A model generated the notes under the pieces. The model saw only the letters and a list, made by a program, of their open reading frames with translations. It did not search any database and was not told where the DNA came from. From assembly GCF_030013205.1 (NCBI RefSeq), contig NZ_CP122648.1: a DNA stretch of 64,000 bases, one strand, 5' to 3'. Positions 19,992 through 47,885 of this stretch are shown piece after piece (position 1 is the stretch's first letter; each line of letters opens with the position of its first letter). Source of the DNA: Escherichia coli (GTDB lineage: Bacteria > Pseudomonadota > Gammaproteobacteria > Enterobacterales > Enterobacteriaceae). A program made the translations under genes and the position numbers.

Positions 19992-20659
19992 GCTAATGCT
20001 CCTTAATAAAAGCGTAATGGGATGTGAATGGAGATGAAAGCAGTGGATCTCATTGCCATCTGCATTTTCGCATAGCGTATATCGCTGGCTATGACTAATC
20101 AATTAGTGAAAAATTTTTATTTAAACTGTTTTTGTAGATAAAATATTCCGTAACGGCGCGTTTTTTGTACATTGTGGATTTTTACATGCCGATATGGTTT
20201 ATTTTTAATTAAATCAATTAGATATGATTCTGCCTTTAATTACACTAATGAAAGTTTGGGGGTGAGGTAACGCTATAAGCGTAGAGAATTCGGTGTATGT
20301 CGTGACCGGGTCATTTTCAGCATTTTTTATGCCAGAAAATGTACATTGACAGCAGAAAGCACCAGTGAGGGGGGGGTTCCATTTATTCGGTTAAATTGCA
20401 TTTTTATTCATTTTTGTTTTGTCAGGCTTGCGGAATTAGCGAGCAGAGAGCGCCGCTCTGCTCACAAATAACCTAAATTACTCATCAAAATGGCTAATAT
20501 ATAATCTTGAAATTATTCTGAGAGTTTCAGAAAATAACAGCTGAAATAATCTCGCGCAGGACTGTAAATAGATTAAATTTTGTGGAAATATAATAAGTGA
20601 TCGCTTACACTACGCGACGAAATACTTTTTTGTTTTGGCGTTAAAAGGTTTTCTTTATT

Positions 20660-34877: not shown

Positions 34878-37800
34878 TCATTTTCCTAATTCTCCAGCTA
34901 AAAGTTCAGCCTGCTTCAAAACAGTCTCTGTGGCGAGCAATGACATATCAGGCGGATAACCATATTTTTTGAGCAGACGTTTTACCACCACGCGAATTTT
35001 TGCTCTTGCTGCTTCTTTCACTGTCCAGTCAAGACTGACATTGTTGCGGATAGCCTCCGTAAGTACGACTGCCAGTTCTCGTAGTTTTTCCTTTTCCATT
35101 AACTCGCGAGCACTGTCGTTATCTGCAACAGCAGAATAGAAGGCATATTCATAAGCGCTGAGGTTTAACTGGCTGGCAAGGCTGTCAGATTCCTGGATAG
35201 TCTTGGCAAGCTTGATTAGCTCATCAATTACCTCCGCTGCGGTCAGTACCTTGTTCTGGTAGCCATTGATTGCAGAGGTCAGCATATCAATCAGTTTTTT
35301 GCCTTGGGTGATACTTTGATTCGAGCGAACCTTGATCTCGTCAGAAAGCAGTTTTTTAAGCGTTTCCAAAGCAATATTTCTGTGTTGGTAATCCTTCATT
35401 TCCTGAAGGAATTCTTCAGAAAGAACGGAAATATCAGGTTTTTGTATCCCAGCAGCGTCAAAAATATCAACAACTTTATCGGTAACCAGAGCCTGATCGA
35501 TAGTCTGTTTTACCCGAACTTCGAGACTGTCATTGTGTTCTTCTTCTGATCCGTCTGAGTTTTCAGTAAATTTATTCAGTCTGGCTTTTACTGCCTGGAA
35601 GAATGCTACTTCGGGTGCCGCTTCCATTGCTTTATCGTGCGGTGTCGCCAATGCAAATGCCTGCGATAAGGCTGCAACCGCAGCGAGGAAACGCATTTTA
35701 CCTTTACCGTTATCCAGCCCTAAAATATGGTTTTCTGATTCAAGAATAATTGTCAGGCGTTGTGAGGTAGTTGCGGCAAAGTAAGCTTTGTAATCGTATC
35801 CATGCATCATGCCTTCCAGGATTTCCAGCTTTTCCTGCATGAGCGTTACGGCTTCTTCCTGAACCTCAGCAGGATCTCCACGTCCACCTGCATCAGAGTA
35901 AAAGGAGAGGGCTTCTTTTAAATCAGAGGCAATGCCCAGATAGTCAACAACCAGACCGCCTATCTTATCTTTATACACACGGTTCACACGGGCAATTGCC
36001 TGCATAAGGTTGTGGCCTTTCATTGGTTTGTCGATATACAGCGTATGCATGCTGGGAGCGTCGAAGCCGGTTAACCACATATCACGCACTATCACCAGTT
36101 TCAGCTTGTCGTCGTCATCCTTCATACGGTTAGCCAGAACCTGACGTTCTTTTTTTGTGGTGTGGTGTTTGGCAATTTCTGGCCCGTCAGCAGCAGAAGA
36201 GGTCATGACGACTTTTATTATACCGTCATTTAAATCATCGCTGTGCCATTCAGGTTTTAAGGCTATGATTTCTTTATATAGTTCAGCAGCAATACGGCGG
36301 GACATGGTAACAATCATGCCCTTACCATGATCGGCATTGGATTTTAAGCGCTGCTCAAAGTGCAGAACCATATCCGCCGCAATCGCTTTAATACGTTTTG
36401 AACTGCCAATCAAACCTTCGATTCTGGCCCATTTAGAACGTTCTTTTTGCGTGAGCGTCAGTTCGTCCTCGTTAAACTCATCATCAAAGTCTTCAATAAG
36501 CTGACGACCTTCATCACTGATGGCAATTTTGGCAAGACGGCTTTCATAAAAGATACGAACTGTTGCACCATCTTCAACGGCCTGCGAGATATCGTAGATA
36601 TCAACATAGTTACCAAAAACAGCAGGCGTGTTGACGTCCGTTTTTTCTATGGGGGTTCCGGTAAAGCCGAGATAGGTCGCATTAGGTAAGGCATCACGCA
36701 TATATTTGGCAAAGCCGTAAACGGTGCGTTTACCTGTTACGTTGCCTTCGCTGTCTTTCACGTCAACTTCTTTGGCGCTGAAACCGTACTGGGAACGGTG
36801 TGCTTCATCAGCGATAACGACAATATTGGTTCTGTCTGACAACAACTCATAGATATTGCTGCCATCATCAGGCTGGAATTTTTGAATAGTAGTAAACACC
36901 ACACCGCCAGAGGCGACACGCAAATATTCTTTGAGTTCTTCCCGGTTGTTGGCCTGTTTTGGTGTCTGACGAAGTAGCTGGGTCGCGGAAGAGAACGTAC
37001 CGAATAGCTGATCATCTAAGTCGTTACGGTCAGTAATCACAACAACTGTCGGATTATCCAGCGCCAGCACAATTTTCCCGGTATAAAACACCATCGAAAG
37101 CGATTTACCGGAACCCTGAGTATGCCAGACTACGCCCGCTTTGCGATCTCCGGTTTTTTGCGCATTAACAAGATCTTTACTGTTACGTCCCTGCTGGCGC
37201 AGTGCCACTTCGGCAGAGGGGGAGTCCGCATTCACCGCTGAGGCACGAATAGTGGAAAGAACTGCTGCATTGACCGCGTAGTACTGGTGATAAGCCGCCA
37301 TTTTTTAACAGTACGGATACTGATAATCCCTTTGCTGTCTTCATGTTTGCTGGCCTCAAACACGATAAAGTGGCGGATTATATCCAGCAGCGTTACAGGA
37401 TTAAGCAACCCCTGTAATAAAACTTCAAGCTGTGGTTGGGTACTGGTGGCTTGCGTTTTACCGTTAGCAGTTTTCCACGTCATATAACGACTGAAATCGG
37501 CAGAAACCGTCCCCGCTTTGGCTTCCAGCCCGTCAGATATCACATTAAAAGCATTGTAGTTAAACAGACCGGGGATTTGGTTCTGATAGGTTTTAATCTG
37601 ATTATAGGCACCTGTTACCGTTGCATTTTCGTCAGCGGCATTTTTAAGTTCGATAACGACTAATGGCAGGCCATTGATGAATAAAATAAGATCAGGTCGG
37701 CGGGTATGGTTGCCTTCTTTGATGGTGAGCTGATTAATGACCAGAAATGCATTATTAGTGGGATCGTTAAAGTCGATCAGGCTGGCCAGTTCTCCTTGTG

Positions 37801-38116
37801 TATTACCATCCTTGCTGACTTCGATATTGATTCCTTCGGTCAAAAGGCGATGAAAGGTTAGATTGTTTGCCATTAGGTCAGGTGAGCTGATCTGCATCAC
37901 CTGTTTTAGAGCTTCTTCACACTTCTGCTCACTAAGGTGCGGGTTAATTCGTTGCAATGCTGTACGCACTTTATCTTCAAGGATAACCTGCTGATAGCTA
38001 CGTAACGGATTGATTCCACTGGGTTCAATGTCCGGGCCGTAAACATACTCATAGCCCAGCCCTTGCAGGTGCTCAATTGCCATTACTTCAATATCGGATT
38101 CGGTCATCTTTGCCAT
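34878..38116 (-). pseudogene. hsdR: Type I restriction enzyme R subunit HsdR, disrupted by a frameshift in an A6 tract
   Basis: Two overlapping minus-strand ORFs (37232..38116 N-terminal part; 34878..37301 C-terminal part with DEAH box [14 protein letters not shown]); frames switch at the AAAAAA run at 37295-37300; restoring A7 gives continuous …[20 protein letters not shown]…. Confidence 0.8.
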
Positions 38117-38174
38117 GCGTACTGTCCTTATTGCCGCTTAACCAGAGAGCGGGCTGTACACCCGCATAATTATT

Positions 38175-39368
38175 TTATGCTACTGATGCGATTGCTTCTT
38201 CCGCATACTGAACCCGTACTTCGCCGCTCATCAGTTTGGGAAGGAGAGTGTCGCGCAGAGATTCTATGTTTTTAATTTGTGAGTTGTTAATACTTATTTT
38301 TTTCCAGAAGAAATCAATCTGTGTAGTGAATTCTTTCACCATACACTCCGGGGGGAGTTTGAATTCTGGGCGTTGTAATCCGTCAGCCGACAGCTGATTT
38401 ACAGTTGAACCGTTAGTTGCAGCAACAACTTGCTCATGCATATCTTTGGAGCAAAGTAAATAGTACAGAAAAGCATTGGTTAAGTAACTATCGTCATTGA
38501 TGCTGATTTTAAATAAATGATGCGTATATATGGATAATTCGCTTTCTGTTTTTGGAATTATAGCAGGATACCCTATGAGTCGATATTCATGGCCCTGTTC
38601 TGTATTGGCTACAATGATATCCCCAGGCTTTATAATATGCCTTTCTTTAAAATCACCATTGTAGTATTTTATACCTGCACTCTTATAACCACCGCCCTCA
38701 AGTACTGAGTTCAAACTAAAAAGTGGAATGCCGTTATCTGACGTGGTAAGGCCGGCTCCCTTGTAGCTTAATCCCTTAGCTACTGTAATATGACAATCAA
38801 GAGTCGTTATTTCCCAATCCGCATGCGTCTCTTCAATAAACCACTGTCTAAATAGGGTTTCTGCCATGGATTCCAGAGTTTTATTCTGGCGATGAAGCAG
38901 GTCTATTTTGTCTTTAAGAGAGGACAAAATAGAGGCGATGGCTTTTTGTTCAGATTCATCAATTGGTAAGTAAAGAGGAATCAAATTTAGCGATGCTTTA
39001 TTTAATTTTGGTTGAGCAGCACCTGTTAAATAAGGAGATAGATCAAGTTGTGAAAAATATTGGATTATCAATGCCGTTAAATGGGGCTTTTTAGCTTTAA
39101 GGACATGAGCGTGATTATTAACCCAAAATTTTCCAGTAGCTTCAAATGCTATAGGTGTTTTTCTGGACTTTAAGTTTTCTCCATCTTCAGAAATAAGGAT
39201 GTAGCTGCCATCAAAAATATAATTGTCGATATAATCGACAATTCCTGACGCTCCATAATATGGAAAATTTCCTTTCTTATGGGCTCGTTCCATAGCACTC
39301 AAAGGAATTCTTTGTGCGTTGCAAAAATCTGCTAATTCAGTTATACAAAAATTTCTCCACCTACTCAT
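38175..39368 (-). CDS. hsdS: Type I restriction-modification specificity subunit HsdS
   Basis: 397 aa; position between hsdM and hsdR; 4-nt overlap with hsdM stop. Confidence 0.85.
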
Positions 39369-40912
39369 AAAACCACCTTCGCCAGATTATCAACGATGGC
39401 TCTGTTCAGACGCGCCTCTTCTTCCAGTTGCGCTTCAAACTCAGCTTTAAGAGCCGTAAAGCGTTCTTTAAAGTCGAAATCGTCTTCTTCATCAGCAAGA
39501 CCAACATAACGGCCAGGTGTCAGCACATAATCGAGTTTAGCAACTTCAGCAATGTCTACTGACGCACAGAAACCAGCGACGTCTTCGTAGTCGCCACCTT
39601 TGTTACGCCAGTTATGATAGGTATCAGCGATGGTTTTTATATCGTCGTCAGAAAGTACTTTGGTACGACGATTAATTAAATGACCGAGATTACGGGCATC
39701 AATAAACAGAATTTCTTTACTACGATCACGATACTGGTTGCTGTTATGACGGTCACGGCGCATAAACCATAATGCAGCAGGGATCTGAGTATTCAGGAAC
39801 AGCTTTGCCGGTAAGTTGACGATACAGTCAATCACATTGGCATCTTTTACCAGTGCAGCACGAATATCACCTTCACCAGAGCTTTTAGAAGTTAATGCCC
39901 CTTTTGCCAGAACAACACCCGCTTGCCCTTTAGGAGACAAGTGATACAAAAAATGTTGCATCCATGCAAAGTTAGCGTTGCCAGCAGGTGGAATGCCATA
40001 TTGCCAGCGGGCATCACCACGAAGCTGCTCACCAGACCAGTCGGAAACGTTAAACGGTGGGTTAGCTATGATAAAATCAGATTTCAAATCTTTGTGAGCA
40101 TCGTTAAGAAATGAACCTTCATTATTCCAGCGAACGTGTTCAGAATTAATCCCACGAATTGCCAGGTTCATTTTTGCCAGACGCCAAGTGGTCTGGTTGG
40201 ACTCCTGCCCATAGATCGAAATATCGTCAATATTTCCCTGATGTGCTTCTACAAATTTTTCTGACTGAACGAACATACCACCAGAACCACAGCAGGGATC
40301 AAAGACACGGCCTTTATAGGGTTCCAGCATGTTAACCAGCAGGCTTACAATAGATTTTGGCGTATAGAACTGGCCGCCTTGTTTGCCTTCTGCCAGTGCA
40401 AATTCACCTAGGAAGTATTCGAATACGTGACCTAAAACGTCAGCAGAGCGTGCTTTGGCATCTCCTAGTGCAATGTTGCCAATCAGATCTATCAGCTCAC
40501 CCAGAACAGTGGCGTCGAGGTTTTGTCGGGCATAGACTTTCGGCAACACACCTTTTAACTGTGGATTGCCCGCTTCGATAAGCTCCATCGCATCATCAAC
40601 CATCTTACCGATTTCAGGAAGCTTGGCCTTAGAAATCAGATAGTTCCAACGTGCAAGCTCAGGGACAAAGAAAACGTTGTAAGCGGTGTACTCGTCTTTG
40701 TCTTCCGGATCAGCACCTGCGAACTCGCCTTTACCGGCTTTCAGCAACTCATAATGAGATTCAAAAGAATCAGAAATGTACTTAAGGAAAATGAGGCCTA
40801 GTACGACGTGCTTGTACTCGGCTGCATCAATGTTTTTACGCAGTTTGTCTGCCGCTTTCCACAGGATGACCTCTAACGGGTCTGTTTTGATTTCTTTAGG
40901 TTTTCTGGCCAT
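39365..40912 (-). CDS. hsdM: Type I restriction-modification N6-adenine DNA methyltransferase HsdM
   Basis: 515 aa; AdoMet-binding [11 protein letters not shown] and catalytic NPPF motifs. Confidence 0.9.
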
Positions 40913-41039
40913 TAGCGTAACCTTATGAAGGGGGAAGATGGCCCTATTTTGCCTTAAAGTTCCGCTTGTTACGAGCTTATACAGCGATTAATTATTATCT
41001 GGTTTTAGTGTGTTCGTGTAGCTCAGCAAGTGCAATGAC

Positions 41040-41400
41040 TCATGGAGTAAATGCTTTGTAGCGGGATTGTAGATGTCAGGTCATTGCCGTCAATGGAGCC
41101 AGTGTCATTGGCATAATTGCTGCACAGCCGATGCCACGCGCACATTCGCTAGTTCACTGTGGTTCATCGTGTGTACTACACCAGTACGCAGTCCGGGAAG
41201 TAACGGCATGGCAGAATCGTTTGTAAAGACGTTCAAGCGGGATTATGTGTACGTAGATGATCTGCTGGATGCAGTCTAAATGATGGAAACAATGGCAGAA
41301 TAGATAGAGGATTATAATAATCTGCATCCACACAAGGGGTTGAACATGAAATCGCCACGCGAATATCGTGATGCCATATTAGCAGTTAATTAGCCGTGTC
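41040..41400 (+). pseudogene. IS3-family (IS2-like) transposase OrfB C-terminal remnant
   Basis: Short frames translate to …TPVRSPGSNGMAESFVKTFKRDYVYVDDLLDAV and …DYNNLHPHKGLNMKSPREYRDAILAVN, resembling the end of IS2 OrfB; no intact ORF. Confidence 0.6.
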
Positions 41401-42508
41401 CGTTTTAGCAGGGACAACTCCAGTATTCAAAAAAGCTTTCTTAGTGCATATGCATGAGGTGAATAGATGTACAGGCTATGACAAACCATAGTTGTAATTT
41501 TTAATGTTTAAAATTCTCCGTTACAGTAGGACATTCCTTGTACATTAAATTCCATCTAAGGTTGAATTTTTAATTTAATAAGGTCGCAATCTAAAATGAT
41601 GTGTATGGGGTTATTTGTAAGATGATTTTTTATTTTTGATAGTGGTGATTAAGGGAGCGGGTAATGTTTGTCTATTCAAAAATATAGAGATTCAAGGTTG
41701 GTAGCAGTTTGGCTTCTTTTATAACCGAAGGGCAGAAAAGCAAGGGGAACTCGAAGAAGCAAGCGCAGCGGCTTCGCAGAGTTAGCCCTTGCTTCTCTTA
41801 TAATTGGCATTATTCATTCAAGAACAATAGGATCTTCGCTTGTACAAGCGAAGCTATAATAAAAACAATCAATTAATAATTTTAAAAGTATTAAACAAGA
41901 ACCTATTGACATTCATAAAATACAAGTTATTTATAATGTATGCCATAAATAAAAAGTTTTATGTCATATGTATCCTGCACTATGTGCAGTTAATGTACCA
42001 CTTGTCCCATAGATGGGAATATTGGAAAGGTTACTTTGTTTTGAAGTAGCCTTTCGTCCTTCAATATTAACGATTACTTATTGCTATTACCAAGTCCAGT
42101 CGAATCGAAGAACATCTTTTATCTGAAACGACTCCTAATACCCGGTTAAAGCCACAATATCTCTCGCATACGTAGACCAAAGAAAAATTATGATATTAAC
42201 TATGTGATTTTTTTTAGTGTTAAGTTGAATAATTAAATACTGGAGAGTTTTCTGTGCACTACCAATTGCTGGTTCATCTGTTCTGCCGCTGATGTTTCTG
42301 ACGAATCTCCCGGTGACACAGAACTGTCCCTCTCTACCAGCCTTTATTCGACTCAATGTCCGGCTGCTGATACGCAGTTATCCCTTCGTATCAATGACTG
42401 ACACTTAAACGTAATGCTTTGGTTGCTGGCGTATCTGACAGCTTCTTCGGCGTGAAGGTCGTTGTGTAAGTATACTTCTTGGTTTATTTAGGCTATATAA
42501 AACCATGA

Positions 42509-43405
42509 CTATGACTTGCTGTTTTCAGTAAGAGTCTTATCATCCAAAGAATTTATTCTAGAAATTCTTTTTAACTCATTAAGATAATCAACCTCGTTTT
42601 CTAAGAACCAATGAAGAACTTTAGAATTGCCAAGTAATTTATTAATATATGACTGGATTATAACGAATTTCAACATATCTGAACCATACTCGGTTTGAAG
42701 CTTTTTCGTTTCTTCCGAAGTTGTTGCCATTTCTTGTTCCAGACGAAGTATGGTTTTTTTTATGTCCTTTTTATAGGGAGTGTTTTTCCCTTTATTTACT
42801 ATCATCGATGCCGGTGTTGCATCCAAGATGCTCATTGCAAATTTTTTACTATAATTATCAAAATTAATCATTGTACCGACTGCTTCAATTTGGCGAATTG
42901 GCTTCATTTTCCTCAAAACGTCAAATGTAGCCTTAGGTATAGGTTTATCAGAAAGTTTCGCAATTACACTTGGATCTATGCCGTTCATCACATTCGCTTT
43001 ATCTTTTATGGCATCAACAGATATGCCCAAAGCAGCACTAAGTTTTTCAATTGATACTTTTGCCAGAGACTTAATTATCATTCTATGTTCTTCAACTACA
43101 TTTATATGATTCACTTGTTTGTTAGGAGTGAAAGCATCATCTATGCTCGAAAGTATACATGGAGCTTTTTCTATACCTAAGTCTTTTAAAGCCTCAACCC
43201 TTAAATGGCCATCAAGTATCTTAGTGACATCTTTATCTTTGTCATAGAATACTATTATTGGTTCAATAATACCTAAGCTTTCGATAGAGGTAACTATTTG
43301 ATGATATTTATGGCTTCGCTTTACGTTTTCTAATAATTCCTTAGATGGAATTAACTTATTAGTTTCCAGGTAAATAAAATTATCGCCAAAACGTATCTGA
43401 ATCAT
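42509..43405 (-). CDS. ParB/Srx-fold protein (ParB N-terminal-like domain), function unknown
   Basis: 298 aa; ParB-like GxxR-containing segment …IIVFYDKDKDVTKILDGHLRVEALKDLGIEKAPCIL…; start overlaps upstream gene stop by 4 nt. Confidence 0.6.
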   Translation of the reverse strand: MIQIRFGDNFIYLETNKLIPSKELLENVKRSHKYHQIVTSIESLGIIEPIIVFYDKDKDVTKILDGHLRVEALKDLGIEKAPCILSSIDDAFTPNKQVNHINVVEEHRMIIKSLAKVSIEKLSAALGISVDAIKDKANVMNGIDPSVIAKLSDKPIPKATFDVLRKMKPIRQIEAVGTMINFDNYSKKFAMSILDATPASMIVNKGKNTPYKKDIKKTILRLEQEMATTSEETKKLQTEYGSDMLKFVIIQSYINKLLGNSKVLHWFLENEVDYLNELKRISRINSLDDKTLTENSKS

Positions 43406-44298
43406 TTTAATACCTCTTTGTTTACTGGGGTTAATATCTGAGATGGTAGTTCTGAAAGATTCTCTTGTTCAAGTATATGTTGAAAGCTTTTATTTATCAT
43501 TATGATGTTAAAAATCTCATTTACTATTAGTAGGTTGGTTTTTATGAATTTTGAGTTGTTATAAACAGATTTATGTTCAGCGATACTATTTTCATAAAGC
43601 TCAATCAACTCCTCTGCAGTCATCCTTTTTGATGGTTTGTGATAATAAAATCCGGCTGCTTTTGCACCTTTATTCCCAACTGTTCTTTGATTTAGAATGT
43701 GTTTTATCTTTATAATGTCCCGACTTTTTATTAATTTTTTATCATATGCTTCGGTAAGAATATCTTGTGCTTCCTCAGTTTCACATCTTGCAAATTGCAC
43801 TGCGAGATACAGAGGCAAATTACCCCGTTCGACTGCTGAGAGAAGTTTATGCTCTCCCTTATCAAGTAGCATATTAATACTGCTCACCCAGTTCGATGAA
43901 TATCCAGTAATCTCACTTATTTCGGAGTCTGAAAGTCCTCTGATTTTCATGTCTTTAATCACCTGTAATAACTCATTAGAACGTGGTCTTCTCCTTGCAA
44001 TGTTTTCAACTAAACTCATAACGTAAGCATCTTCTTCTGATACATCTCTTATAATTGCTGGAATAATAGTTTCACCTAATGCAACGAGAGCCTCTATTCT
44101 CCCTTGACCACAAATTAAAGCATATTTGAAATCGCCTTCATCAATAGCTCTTACGCTTATTGGCTTGCTTAATCCTCTTTTTTTTATGCTTTCCTTTATT
44201 TCTTCATGCACTACCTTATTTCTTGTTCGTGGGTTAAGAAATTTTATTTTTGCAATCTCAATTTGAATTATTGGGAATTCATTTTTTTCAGGCAGCAT
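43402..44298 (-). CDS. ParB/Srx-fold protein with HTH, function unknown
   Basis: 298 aa; ParB N-terminal-like segment …FLNPRTRNKVVHEEIKESIKKRGLSKPISVRAIDEGDFKYALICGQGRIEALVALGETIIPAIIRD… then HTH-like region; GQGR replaces the canonical GERR box; overlaps recombinase gene by 11 nt. Confidence 0.65.
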   Translation of the reverse strand: MLPEKNEFPIIQIEIAKIKFLNPRTRNKVVHEEIKESIKKRGLSKPISVRAIDEGDFKYALICGQGRIEALVALGETIIPAIIRDVSEEDAYVMSLVENIARRRPRSNELLQVIKDMKIRGLSDSEISEITGYSSNWVSSINMLLDKGEHKLLSAVERGNLPLYLAVQFARCETEEAQDILTEAYDKKLIKSRDIIKIKHILNQRTVGNKGAKAAGFYYHKPSKRMTAEELIELYENSIAEHKSVYNNSKFIKTNLLIVNEIFNIIMINKSFQHILEQENLSELPSQILTPVNKEVLK

Positions 44299-45844
44299 AT
44301 AGTTCCCTCACTTTCATGCGAGTAATAATTTGTAGAAGTTTATCAAGATTATCAAATCTATAGAGATCTAATCGAATGTTGTTTGTTTCCGTCATGCACA
44401 TTTTATTATATTCGTTTTCAATCTTTGGTATGATATAAAAATCAAGAGGTGAAATATTTTGTGAATTCATTCGTATAACAATTGTTATGTCTGCTTTCTG
44501 TGAGTTATCAAACCGGACTTTCCATCTAAGTTTACCTGATTTCATATGTATGCATTTAGTAACAAGGACGGAAATTAAAAACTCATCATTGATGTAAAGC
44601 ATTGGGGCATATTTATACTCGTCTATATGACAGTTACTTTTTAAAATTTCACCCTTAAAATCCTCAATTATCTCTGAGTAAAATGATCTTAGTGCTTCAT
44701 TTATTTTGAGATAGCTGTAATCATGTTCTGGCTTATAACCAATCAAAGTATATGCTCTTAAAAGACCACCAAATCGGGTTCTATAAACAGAAGATGAAGG
44801 GCCTGTATCATCTTCATCAATGATAAAGCCTGATAGTTTTCCATTAGATTCTAATTTTTGTTTTAGTTTTTCTAATAGATCTTCATTAGTCAAATGAATG
44901 GATCGGAGCTGAATTATTTCTTGAGCTTTATTGTATTTTTTCTTTGAAATAATAGGTTTATATGCCTTGTCACATCTAACCCATTCATGTTTGGGGTTTT
45001 TTACAAGCCTACTTTTTAATTTAGATGAGGTTTTGTTATATATGTTGTTTCCAATATATTTTTCATTTGTCAAAATTTGATGTATTTTTGCACGAGTCCA
45101 TAATGTTCCATTTTCTGCAGGTATGTTCTGTTCATTTAATCTCTCAGCAATAATGAATTCTGGGACGTTATTATCTATAAAGAGATCATATATTCTATTT
45201 ACAATTTTTATTTCATTTTTTGGTCCCGGAATTAATATTACCCTATCTGTTTGAATACTCTTTCTTTTGCGGAAACTCAATATTTCTTTAGCTATGCCAT
45301 TTTCGTCTACTAAAAGACGTCTCAGCCCATAACCAGCCATACCGCCTTGATGATAACCAAGCTTTATTAAATTTACTTGCCCTATAAATACCTTTTCAGA
45401 TAGATTCCTGCTGTGATATGCAGCACTAGATCTTTTTATATTCAGTATAACAGAGGACTCTAAAGGGAAATCTTTAGTGGGTATAGGTTCGGAACAATAT
45501 ATAAGATCTACACCATTTCTCTCAAATAGAAAGGAATAATATGCCGCTTCATCACTATTTTGAAAACGACCAAAACGGCTCACATCATAAAATAATACAG
45601 CCTGTATATCTATTTTCTTTTGTTCTACATCGCTAAGTAACTGCTGCAAAGAATGCCTGCCTACGATACTGACTCCGCTCTTACCTGCATCATCGTAGGT
45701 ATAAGCGATTTCCATATTGTTCTTTTCAGCATAATCTTTGATATATTCGGACTGATTATGTAAAGAATATTGCTGATGGTCGGTAGACATCCTCAAGTAC
45801 TGCGCGACCCTAACTCTATGATTTTTGTCATTTTCGCTAGCCAT
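44288..45844 (-). CDS. Large serine recombinase (resolvase/invertase catalytic domain plus recombinase domain)
   Basis: 518 aa; motifs YLRMSTDHQ (catalytic Ser), DDAGKSG, YDVSRFGR, and recombinase-domain WTRAKIHQILTNEKYIGNNIY. Confidence 0.75.
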   Translation of the reverse strand: MASENDKNHRVRVAQYLRMSTDHQQYSLHNQSEYIKDYAEKNNMEIAYTYDDAGKSGVSIVGRHSLQQLLSDVEQKKIDIQAVLFYDVSRFGRFQNSDEAAYYSFLFERNGVDLIYCSEPIPTKDFPLESSVILNIKRSSAAYHSRNLSEKVFIGQVNLIKLGYHQGGMAGYGLRRLLVDENGIAKEILSFRKRKSIQTDRVILIPGPKNEIKIVNRIYDLFIDNNVPEFIIAERLNEQNIPAENGTLWTRAKIHQILTNEKYIGNNIYNKTSSKLKSRLVKNPKHEWVRCDKAYKPIISKKKYNKAQEIIQLRSIHLTNEDLLEKLKQKLESNGKLSGFIIDEDDTGPSSSVYRTRFGGLLRAYTLIGYKPEHDYSYLKINEALRSFYSEIIEDFKGEILKSNCHIDEYKYAPMLYINDEFLISVLVTKCIHMKSGKLRWKVRFDNSQKADITIVIRMNSQNISPLDFYIIPKIENEYNKMCMTETNNIRLDLYRFDNLDKLLQIITRMKVRELYAA

Positions 45845-46126
45845 GCACGAAACCTCATGGATGATTCAATACAATGTAGTGGATAAAATTGATCAAATTT
45901 CAACCGAATTCAACTGTTTTATCATTGATTAGAGCGAATTTGGTAGATCTTCGAGGTGTATGATAATCGAGAAGAGATGTGAATTATTTAGCTGATATGA
46001 CCGACAGCTTTCGTTATGTGGACTCAATGTCCCCATTTGTAAATGGCTATGCTTAGTCCACATAGGTTAATGGTGTGATTATTAATTCTTTAACTAAATC
46101 AAGATAGTTAATCCATCATGGGAGAG

Positions 46127-47356
46127 TTATGCGGCCATAACTTTGCATTTTTGAGACGAAACATAGTCACTCCACCATTGCATGAGAACCACCCGTTCAG
46201 TGAGATACTCTGCACGATTGTAGGCTGCAATTATTTCATCTTTCTTCGAGTGGGCAAGGGCGGCTTCTAAGACATCAGTCCTAAACTTGCCAGACTCCTC
46301 AGCAGCCGTTCTAGCAATGGATCGCATACCGTGAGCTACAAGCTCACCTCCGAAACCCATACGGATTATGGCCGCATTAGCTGTTTGTTCATGCATGTGA
46401 TTGAGTGGAGCTTTGATACTGGGGAACACCCACTCTCTATGCCCGCTGATGACTTTCATTAAATCCAAAACTCGCAAAGCTTCTTTGCTCAGTGGAACTT
46501 TGTGAGGCTTCTTCATTTTCATAAACTCCGCCGGGATGTTCCACATGCCAGTTTCAATATCAATATCTGACCATCTTGTGCGAACAGCTTCACCTGGGCG
46601 AACCCATGTGAGAAGTTGCCACTCAATCAGTAGCCTTGTTTCCAAACGGATAGAAGCATTGTTTAGAGCAACCAAGAAGCGAGGGAGTTCGGAAGGGGGT
46701 AATGCTGGCATATTCTGTTTTTTTGGCTTGCTGAACCGTTGCCCCAGGTTGTCTGCCGGGTTGAATTCTATGAGTTCTTCTGTTGCTGCATAGCGGAAAA
46801 TTTCATTCAGGCGGGATATGATGCGGCGAAGTGTTTCAAGGACACCTCGTTTTTCTATGGGTTCTAAATGCTGTTTAAGCATTTTAGGGCGAATCTCCTT
46901 AATTGGGGTATCACCCAATGTGGAAAAGATATTTCTCTCTAGGCTTCGCCAGATGTCGTTAGCATGATCTTGGGAGATGCCTGACGTTTTGACTTTCTCA
47001 TCAAGCCACTTCTTGGCTACTGCTTGAAATGTATGTTCCGTGGCATCTTTCAGTGCATTGGCTTTTTGGTTGTTATGAACTTGGGGGTCTATACCATTTG
47101 TAAGCAACGACAAGTATTCATCACGTAAAGCTCGTGCCTTCGCAAGTGTAAGGTGAGGATAGGTTCCTAAGCTCACCTTAGTTCGCTTTTTGGTCACAGG
47201 CACTGCATATCTGAAATACCAATTTTTCTTCCCTCCCTTCGCCAGGGGAGCGATTCGCAACAGCAAACCATCGCCGTCAAAAAGGTTAACCTCTTTTTCG
47301 GCAGGTTTGGTGCTTTTGATTTCAGTGTCAGTGAGCTTCTTAGCGATTTTGGCCAT
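46127..47356 (-). CDS. int: P4-family tyrosine integrase next to ssrA
   Basis: About 409 aa from MAKIAKKLTDTEIKSTKPAEKEVNLFDGDGLLLRIAP…; C-terminal catalytic region with R…HGMRSIARTA…Y; ORF track extends 27 codons upstream. Confidence 0.9.
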   Translation of the reverse strand: MAKIAKKLTDTEIKSTKPAEKEVNLFDGDGLLLRIAPLAKGGKKNWYFRYAVPVTKKRTKVSLGTYPHLTLAKARALRDEYLSLLTNGIDPQVHNNQKANALKDATEHTFQAVAKKWLDEKVKTSGISQDHANDIWRSLERNIFSTLGDTPIKEIRPKMLKQHLEPIEKRGVLETLRRIISRLNEIFRYAATEELIEFNPADNLGQRFSKPKKQNMPALPPSELPRFLVALNNASIRLETRLLIEWQLLTWVRPGEAVRTRWSDIDIETGMWNIPAEFMKMKKPHKVPLSKEALRVLDLMKVISGHREWVFPSIKAPLNHMHEQTANAAIIRMGFGGELVAHGMRSIARTAAEESGKFRTDVLEAALAHSKKDEIIAAYNRAEYLTERVVLMQWWSDYVSSQKCKVMAA

Positions 47357-47522: not shown

Positions 47523-47885
47523 TGGTGGAGCTGGCGGGAGTTGAACCCGCGTCCGAAATTCCTACGTCCTCGGTACTACATGCTTAGTCAGTCTTTACAT
47601 TCGCTTGCCAGCTGCGGACGGACACGCCACTAACAAACTAGCCTGATTAAGTTTTAACGCTTCAACCCCAGGCAGGGCTTCCACGCGATCTCTTTTGGGT
47701 TTGACCTCTCTTGATCCCCGTCCTAAGAGCGGAGGCTAGGGAGAGAGGGCTCTAAGCAGGTTATTAAGCTGCTAAAGCGTAGTTTTCGTCGTTTGCGACT
47801 ATTTTTTGCGGCTTTTTACGAGGCCAACCGCCCCTCGGCATGCACCTTGGGTTTCGCAAATCCCGTCGAATCCAGAATCAGCCCC
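47523..47885 (-). ncRNA. ssrA: tmRNA (SsrA, 10Sa RNA)
   Basis: Minus-strand sequence matches remembered E. coli tmRNA from GGGGCTGATTCTGGATTCGACGGG to …GCTCCACCA (363 nt). Confidence 0.95.

Follow-up and report, generated by a model that had tools for sequence, protein, structure and literature searches.

The window, a stretch of 64,000 nt of Escherichia coli DNA, carries genes for a type I restriction-modification (R-M) system on an island at the tmRNA gene. This raises the question of whether the locus encodes a working restriction enzyme, a methyltransferase only, or a system in which restriction can be switched. There is hardly any doubt that the locus is an ordinary type I restriction-modification cassette, and we hold with considerable confidence the account as a whole, namely an ordinary cassette on a decayed island, whose hsdR is broken as written and which would be r− m+ if the sequence is accurate. 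The hsd cassette is already known and catalogued and is not new. The assignment to type I with the gene order M-S-R, proposed in the initial annotation, is borne out by domain matches (Pfam, NCBIfam, PADLOC), by relatives in the PDB and by directly read junctions, and the methyltransferase motifs and the DEAH box named there are present (HsdM residues 204 and 284; motor ORF of hsdR). Its description of the gene set as complete fails on hsdR, which a frameshift splits here into two overlapping ORFs and which carries the RefSeq label 'frameshifted'.

Composition of the cassette

Together with an upstream region that contains an IS3-family remnant, hsdM, hsdS and hsdR occupy 6.96 kb on the minus strand (34848..41804). 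The first gene, hsdM (39365..40912, minus strand), is intact and encodes a protein of 515 aa that is identical to WP_000101606.1. HsdM contains the Pfam domains N6_Mtase (E 2.6e-107) and HsdM_N (E 9.8e-26), matches PADLOC MTase_I at 625 bits and carries an AdoMet motif ([11 protein letters not shown]) at residue 204 and the catalytic NPPF at residue 284. All features of a type I methyltransferase (gamma-class N6-adenine, xDPxxGxGG, NPPF/Y, HsdM_N) are therefore found in this protein. The second gene, hsdS (38175..39368, minus strand), is likewise intact and encodes 397 aa (WP_001356249.1). Direct reading of the junction shows that the hsdS ATG and the hsdM stop share 4 nt (ATGA), and both this overlap and the 58-bp spacer before the hsdR start at 38116 had been given exactly in the initial annotation. 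The spacer (38117..38174, minus strand) contains a GC hairpin at 38149-38165.

Breakpoints deduced from hybrid hsdS alleles define the layout of HsdS as TRD1 (~aa 1-139), CR1 (~140-177), TRD2 (~178-360) and CR2, which extends to the C-terminal end. The natural hybrid alleles break within CR1, at nt 418-531, and the hsdS alleles across strains read as classical domain shuffling. We considered a half-size S subunit, given that Pfam Methylase_S covers one TRD only (TRD1), and rejected it because TRD2, together with CR2, aligns to S.MjaXI (1YF2) and to EcoKI HsdS, and because PADLOC Specificity_I matches the protein over its full length at 485 bits. HsdS has the two TRDs and the conserved helical regions of type I systems. 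A literature search by accessions, strain name and ST410 methylomes returned nothing on the recognition sequence, on these proteins or on the strain ETEC4079. Since PacBio was used to sequence many of the strains with WP_001356249.1, its motif has probably been recorded already.

Two weak promoter-like sites on the minus strand were found, (i) upstream of hsdM (41066..41093, TTGACG-16-TACAAT) and (ii) within the 3′-terminal part of hsdS, ~145 nt ahead of hsdR (38261..38290, TTAACA-18-TAGAAT). Because the promoter and terminator scan of the region yielded sites no more numerous than the shuffled expectation, a layout with two promoters, for hsdM and for hsdR, is a suggestion only.

In type I systems, one HsdS with two TRDs and two HsdM form an M2S1 N6-adenine methyltransferase, and HsdS and HsdM of this locus would be expected to assemble in the same way, the subunit make-up being taken from established type I biology. 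An intact HsdR, with its PD-(D/E)xK nuclease and SF2 DEAH motor, would dock on the M2S1 core, translocate and cut unmodified DNA.

The frameshift in hsdR

As written, hsdR (34878..38116, minus strand) is a frameshifted pseudogene of 3239 nt, a length that is not divisible by 3. The intact allele, for which we used that of APEC O78, comprises 3240 nt and encodes 1079 aa (WP_001096907.1), and its product scores 591 bits with TIGR00348 and 1229 bits with PADLOC REase_I. A tract of seven A in intact alleles is reduced to six (37301..37306, minus strand), which shifts the frame by −1 behind codon 272, where the nuclease domain gives way to the motor domain. The N-terminal ORF (37232..38116, minus strand; 294 aa) consists of 272 native residues and a 22-aa out-of-frame tail and contains the HSDR_N nuclease domain with D..ELK and QxxxY, which aligns to the EcoR124I endonuclease domain. 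The overlapping C-terminal ORF (34878..37301, minus strand; 807 aa, native residues 273-1079) contains the SF2 DEAH motor ([21 protein letters not shown]), domain 3 and a T1RH-like C-terminal domain, and no Shine-Dalgarno sequence is found ahead of its ATG. In at least 243 other genomes the A7 allele encodes PD-(D/E)xK nuclease, SF2 motor and C-terminal assembly domain in a single polypeptide, whereas here the domains are split over two frames. The same lesion is recorded by RefSeq/PGAP, which annotates hsdR as 'frameshifted' and as a pseudogene in ETEC4079, a pig E. coli whose chromosome equals the window exactly over the 28 kb compared.

Because one A is lost from A7, translation would end after the 272-residue nuclease domain, without the motor or the C-terminal docking region. 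Loss of HsdR with intact HsdM and HsdS is expected to abolish restriction while methylation is kept. Should the sequence be correct, this locus would thus methylate a bipartite target without restriction (r− m+); we infer both this phenotype and expression of the hsd genes. K-12 laboratory hsdR mutants (r− m+, e.g. hsdR17) resemble this state in that HsdR is lost and HsdM and HsdS are intact, but they belong to another type I family, and the lesion in the window is possibly an assembly artefact.

The missing A is the sole difference between the window and APEC O78 over 6.4 kb and the sole difference from the sister strain ETEC4067 over 28 kb. Among complete genomes, A6 occurs in 1 of 286, and an exact 81-mer with A7 is present in 243 genomes. 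Indels do not abound in the assembly: ETEC4079 differs from APEC O78 by 2 gaps in 23 kb and from ETEC4067 at 4 positions in ~55 kb. Two of these four differences concern homopolymer length, a pattern to be expected from errors in a long-read consensus no less than from real slippage. Two origins of the A6 tract come into question: hsdR was knocked out very recently, or the consensus sequence is wrong in the homopolymer.

We lean slightly towards a real mutation. It is nevertheless quite possible, if not what we favour, that a consensus or assembly error occurred at the 7-base homopolymer, in which case hsdR of ETEC4079 would be intact and the locus fully functional (r+ m+). A single-base deletion in a homopolymer, unique among 286 genomes and set in DNA that is otherwise identical to ETEC4067 over 28 kb, is what such an error would produce, and with half of the four differences over ~55 kb lying in homopolymers, the ratio of indels to SNPs exceeds what we would expect, by an estimate that was not computed, for real divergence. 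Against this reading, ETEC4067 and ETEC4069, sister assemblies from one project with ETEC4079, both have A7 at the site, which argues against a systematic error of context, and the inspected regions are almost free of other frameshift annotations (the note 'frameshifted' is attached to 1 of 82 annotated features). Other strains also carry independent knock-outs of the same cassette, with IS1 in hsdR, IS1 in hsdS or IS3 in hsdM, so that loss of function is recurrent and a real inactivation is plausible.

The tract itself could also be given a function, either as a switch, in which slipped-strand toggling between A7 and A6 turns restriction on and off at constant methylation, or as a recoding site, where ribosomes or RNA polymerase slip by −1 on GTT AAA AAA TGG and some full-length HsdR is still made. 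If tRNA-Lys slipped by −1 on the second AAA, the native V-K-K-M-A-A reading would be restored exactly, the tract lies precisely at the boundary between nuclease and motor domains, and type I systems under homopolymer control are known from other bacteria (PMC7383803). Seven bases are short for a contingency locus, however, the lysine-lysine codons need no explanation beyond the requirements of the protein, and with only 1 of 286 genomes deviating, the locus does not classify as a phase-variable (simple-sequence-repeat) type I system; we regard such a switch or recoding site as scarcely credible. It is highly improbable, too, that the A7 tract acts as a low-frequency switch of lineages, with restriction off, self-methylation kept and plasmid uptake eased, or that the split gene gives a nuclease-free motor subunit or a slippage-restored HsdR with residual activity.

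The island at ssrA

The cassette is carried by an integrative mobilizable island, now decayed, whose integration site is ssrA (47523..47885, minus strand), the gene for tmRNA. The backbone of the island (42509..47356, minus strand) comprises a tyrosine integrase (46127-47356), a large serine recombinase (44288-45844) and two ParB/RepB-like genes (43402-44298 and 42509-43405), all on the minus strand; PADLOC made no defence-system assignment for the ParB/ParB/serine-recombinase genes. Of the IS elements that the initial annotation had placed at the borders, the IS1 directly downstream of hsdR stands (34114..34847; both terminal repeats are present, and 33 bp are deleted internally). The 'IS2 remnant' on the other side was imprecise, as the transposase fragment upstream of hsdM (about 41073..41393, plus strand) belongs to the IS3 family and is IS2-like at the protein level, with 51% identity over 53 aa to IS2 OrfB and no nucleotide match to IS2. 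In the segment beyond the IS1 (33042..34113, minus strand), kwaB is reduced to its final 36 bp; an intergenic stretch follows, and then the 5′ portion of an ankyrin-repeat gene (ORF 33037-33648), which a second IS1 (32274-33041) cuts off. The gene order in the window runs from ssrA and the integrase to IS1, the alpha-amylase pseudogene and glaH. Since no repeat of at least 12 nt was found that could represent the attR copy of the ssrA 3′ end, the distal end of the island was set at the junction of IS1 and alpha-amylase.

The location of the genes on the island and away from the usual hsd site was described correctly: ssrA and the alpha-amylase pseudogene enclose them, the immigration control region of this strain (yjiA-mdtM) contains no hsd genes at all, and no other type I locus was seen in the regions inspected. 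As a distinctive trait, the placement loses its weight. The tmRNA site is the published E. coli defence-island hotspot #9 (Hochhauser et al. 2023, PMC10121019), which is flanked by smpB/tmRNA and a pseudogenised alpha-amylase gene (S1 Table and main text of that work), and the window has its variable DNA between just these flanks. The identical cassette is found in about 300 complete E. coli genomes.

Family placement and relatives of the cassette

By sequence, the locus is outside types IA, IB and IC, the families that were compared. Membership of a type I family is taken to require ~70% or more similarity of HsdM and HsdR to the prototype (as summarised in PMC10030836). For type IA, HsdM shows 23% identity to EcoKI HsdM, and gene order (M-S-R) and location (ssrA) do not correspond; for type IB, HsdR reaches 26.2 bits against the NCBIfam EcoAI/FtnUII equivalog, whose cut-off is 550 bits; and for type IC, despite the matching gene order, HsdR matches EcoR124I in three short stretches only (105 bits) and HsdM scores 141 bits. 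On reading the sequence, no tandem 4-aa (TAEL-type) repeats were found in the central region (CR1) of HsdS. HsdM of KpnBI (type IE) is much longer (~877 aa), which would argue against type IE. Distant E. coli hsdR matches, tried as an immigration control region reference for type ID, were rejected as unrelated island-borne systems near leuX, paoD and yecA. The order M-S-R is also found in two other island-borne type I loci of E. coli that we inspected.

Among prototypes, EcoR124I/EcoR124II (type IC; PDB 2W00, 7BST) shares the M-S-R order, the carriage on mobile DNA and the plan of HsdR, in which an N-terminal PD-(D/E)xK nuclease bearing QxxxY is followed by the SF2 DEAH motor and then by a C-terminal region for docking, and the mode of action is presumably the same; the HsdR and HsdM scores are nevertheless far below the ~70% level within families. 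EcoKI, the type IA prototype of E. coli K-12, shares the three-subunit logic and the coupling of hsdM and hsdS in translation through an overlapping stop and start, but differs in sequence, with 23% identity for HsdM and about 20% for HsdS. Its genes are arranged R-M-S in the yjiA-mdtM immigration control region, the site that is empty in the strain of the window.

The closest relatives are found in APEC O78 (NC_020163.1: WP_000101606.1 / WP_001356249.1 / WP_001096907.1) and ETEC4067, whose M and S proteins are identical to those of the window and whose cassettes lie on the same ssrA island, with IS1 after hsdR and an IS3-family remnant upstream. Their DNA is one base apart from that of the window, the difference being A7 and an intact 1079-aa HsdR in place of A6 and a split gene. 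An integrative mobilizable element of Salmonella enterica (hsdMSR-kwaAB, loci L014-L017) has 97.7% nucleotide identity over 6.96 kb and shares the protein lengths of 515/397/1079 aa, the 58-bp spacer and, downstream, the ankyrin gene; its HsdS falls into the same cluster as that of the window (at least 90% identity). The integrase of the element is a different one, as is its backbone, which has a TraI_2 relaxase, an RES-domain gene and a P4 cII-like gene; there hsdR is followed by the Kiwa genes kwaA-kwaB, whose place IS1 has taken in the window. Overall, about 5-6% of the complete E. coli genomes carry the cassette, identical proteins also occur in other enterobacterial genera, and the exact hsd proteins are each found on at least 1000 contigs.

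Beyond strain bookkeeping, the significance of the locus is slight. The lesson to be drawn is that gene sets described as complete should be checked for continuity of the reading frame. The locus is a tidy example of one R-M cassette moving between mobile elements of different genera and of its erosion by IS1, with Kiwa lost and the ankyrin gene truncated here and IS insertions in M, S or R elsewhere. If the frameshift is real, ETEC4079 combines an empty immigration control region with a broken hsdR and would be without restriction from this system while its DNA is still marked, so that plasmid and phage DNA could enter more easily than in its sister strains.

Gene organization and the interrupted hsdR frame

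On the minus strand, hsdM (39365–40912, 515 aa) and hsdS (38175–39368, 397 aa) share ATGA as stop and start, which gives the 4-nt overlap previously described, and the spacer from the hsdS stop to the hsdR ATG at 38116 indeed measures 58 bases. We read the HsdM motifs directly (the 11-letter motif at residue 204 and NPPF at residue 284) and found the DEAH motif in the HsdR sequence, both in agreement with the initial annotation. Three independent libraries (Pfam, NCBIfam and PADLOC) together recognise all three Hsd proteins. Pfam detects HsdM_N and N6_Mtase in HsdM, Methylase_S in HsdS, and HSDR_N, SWI2_SNF2/ResIII, T1R_D3-like and T1RH-like_C in HsdR; the NCBIfam hsdR model TIGR00348 matches with 591 bits, and PADLOC scores 625 bits for MTase_I, 1229 bits for REase_I and 485 bits for a full-length match of Specificity_I to HsdS.

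The gene set had been called complete, but hsdR is broken as written. Its 3239 nt, from the ATG at 38116 down to 34878 on the minus strand, are divided between two overlapping ORFs on that strand, an upstream one of 294 aa (37232–38116) and a downstream one of 807 aa (34878–37301). The break falls within the run GTT AAA AAA TGG, with six adenines (A6) at 37301–37306. Intact hsdR in E. coli APEC O78 has 3240 nt and encodes 1079 aa, and alignment of the 6.4-kb locus with this strain reveals a single difference, A6 in the window versus A7 in APEC O78. Residue 272 is the last before the frameshift. The upstream fragment retains the PD-(D/E)xK/QxxxY nuclease domain and carries 22 out-of-frame residues; the downstream ORF begins at the native Met273 and includes the entire SF2 motor and the C-terminal region, with no Shine-Dalgarno sequence before its ATG.

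Family placement and distribution

By published convention, HsdM and HsdR that are about 70% or more similar are assigned to one type I family, and those below about 30% to different families (PMC10030836). The cassette HsdM is 23% identical to that of EcoKI (type IA); HsdR reaches 26 bits against the equivalog model of EcoAI (type IB), for which the cut-off is 550; and against EcoR124I/II (type IC) HsdR matches in three short stretches with 105 bits and HsdM with 141 bits. Because all three comparisons are low, the cassette lies outside IA, IB and IC. The closest solved relative of HsdM is PDB 3KHK (E 5e-143). The central region of HsdS contains no TAEL-type tandem repeats, and its target-recognition domains (TRDs) show no resemblance to those of EcoKI and EcoR124I.

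At a coverage of ≥80%, 305 of 5426 complete E. coli genomes carry the locus, and 316 carry hsdR of this family. All 288 places matching the frameshift region are chromosomal, none being on plasmids. HsdM, HsdS and HsdR each occur in identical form on at least 1000 contigs, and their 90%-identity clusters extend to Salmonella, Klebsiella, Enterobacter and E. albertii. In 230 genomes the hsdS allele is present in full; hybrids in other strains have in common with it either nt 1–531 alone (TRD1 and conserved region CR1), nt 418–1194 alone (CR1, TRD2 and CR2) or the conserved regions alone, a pattern that corresponds to the classical domain shuffling of type I families. A literature search found no paper naming these cassette proteins. 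The M-S-R order is not special, since two other island-borne E. coli type I loci that we inspected are arranged M-S-(DUF4268)-R. The R-M system is a catalogued one, with a wide distribution and a conventional organisation.

The ssrA island and its Salmonella relative

The island extends from ssrA (47523–47885) to the junction of IS1 and an alpha-amylase pseudogene at ~32274. From the ssrA end it encodes a tyrosine integrase and a large serine recombinase, followed by two ParB/RepB-like genes; next come an AT-rich gap that contains a remnant of an IS3-family element, the hsdMSR genes and an IS1, and after these an ankyrin gene that is truncated and a second IS1. The remnant had been ascribed to IS2; it belongs to the IS3 family, matches IS2 OrfB at 51% identity over 53 aa and has no match to IS2 at the DNA level. 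The site is hotspot #9 of a survey of E. coli defence islands, which is flanked by smpB and a pseudogenised alpha-amylase gene, is filled in 402 of 649 genomes and takes in many kinds of mobile element (PMC10121019). While the earlier observation was largely right and its interpretation right in kind, apart from completeness, the significance of the location was overstated. The proposed check for a second hsd locus returned none at the immigration control region: in the yjiA-mdtM interval, ETEC4079, the pig strain matched by the window, carries brnT/brnA, an IS1 that is defective and a fragment of a dienelactone-hydrolase gene and nothing else (NZ_CP122643.1 4385816–4387618; 5816–7618 of the extracted region L005), without the mrr, hsdRMS or mcrBC of the K-12 layout, and the cassette's hsdR family occurs once in its chromosome.

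A Salmonella enterica integrative mobilizable element (L014) contains a segment 97.7% identical to 34848–41804, in which hsdR is followed by kwaA-kwaB (Kiwa; L014 14523–16083) and then ankyrin genes. In the window, IS1 (34114–34847) occupies the exact place of kwaAB, and 33042–34113 holds the last 36 bp of kwaB and the 5′ part of an ankyrin gene; therefore, the E. coli island lost a second defence system. E. coli strain 26561 has a fuller version, with a second ankyrin gene and a relaxase still present, and strain KFu015 carries the cassette and its IS1 at another chromosomal site.

The IS1 adjoining hsdR has lost 33 bp internally, within insA, and keeps both terminal repeats; it is only 89% identical to the copy at 32274–33041, which truncates the ankyrin gene as well as the alpha-amylase pseudogene. 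Between integrase and cassette, 42509–45844 holds a trio of low GC (~33–35%), made up of the 518-aa serine recombinase and two ParB/RepB-like genes that overlap and encode 298 aa each. The trio is kept in E. coli versions of the island, is missing from the Salmonella element, has no PADLOC defence assignment and may serve island maintenance or partition. The ~1.1 kb of AT-rich DNA at 41394–42508, which has the IS3-family remnant on one side and the ParB-like gene on the other, contains no convincing ORF, and its right-hand part past 41804 is confined to the E. coli island backbone.

Status and expected consequence of the frameshift

Across the 28,080 bases compared, the window is identical to the chromosome of ETEC4079 (NZ_CP122643.1), a strain from pig faeces in Belgium, and RefSeq annotates hsdR there as a ‘frameshifted’ pseudogene. 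In ETEC4067, from the same project and source, the hsdR tract base is the only difference in 28 kb. An 80-mer across the A6 tract has an exact match in ETEC4079 alone (1 of 286 genomes), and the A7 version is exact in 243. The one-base homopolymer deletion is the sole strain-specific feature of the cassette, and its reality is uncertain. Over ~55 kb, four differences separate ETEC4079 from ETEC4067: two SNPs, the length of a G tract (G8/G10, 20367–20374) and the hsdR indel. Two of the four are homopolymer lengths, as might be expected if A6 were a consensus error in the ETEC4079 assembly. Against such an error, the sister strain ETEC4069 shares the G8 tract with ETEC4079, A7 is read in both ETEC4067 and ETEC4069, only two gaps separate the window from APEC O78 in 23 kb, and just 1 of 82 annotated features inspected is noted as ‘frameshifted’. 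Inactivation of this cassette is recurrent, with IS1 inside hsdR in isolate 410 (OW967802), IS1 inside hsdS in strain EC98 and IS3 inside hsdM in strain DETEC-P169. Since the same cassette has been broken independently in these strains, real loss of hsdR function is plausible, and we lean slightly towards the frameshift being a real mutation.

Some of the strains with an IS-broken cassette are ST410-like clinical isolates. The poly-G tract, located between alaE and stpA, is G8 in the window and ETEC4069 and G10 in ETEC4067, and is surrounded by 83 bp that vary among E. coli genomes; the tract may be either hypermutable or prone to sequencing error.

By homology, HsdS and two HsdM would form the methyltransferase core, which would methylate adenine in a bipartite target chosen by the two TRDs. 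We infer from established type I biology that intact HsdR would dock via its C-terminal region, draw DNA in with ATP and cleave at a distance. The frameshift would leave a nuclease fragment without motor and docking region and a motor fragment without a translation start signal, and for this reason the frameshifted locus is expected to confer methylation without restriction.
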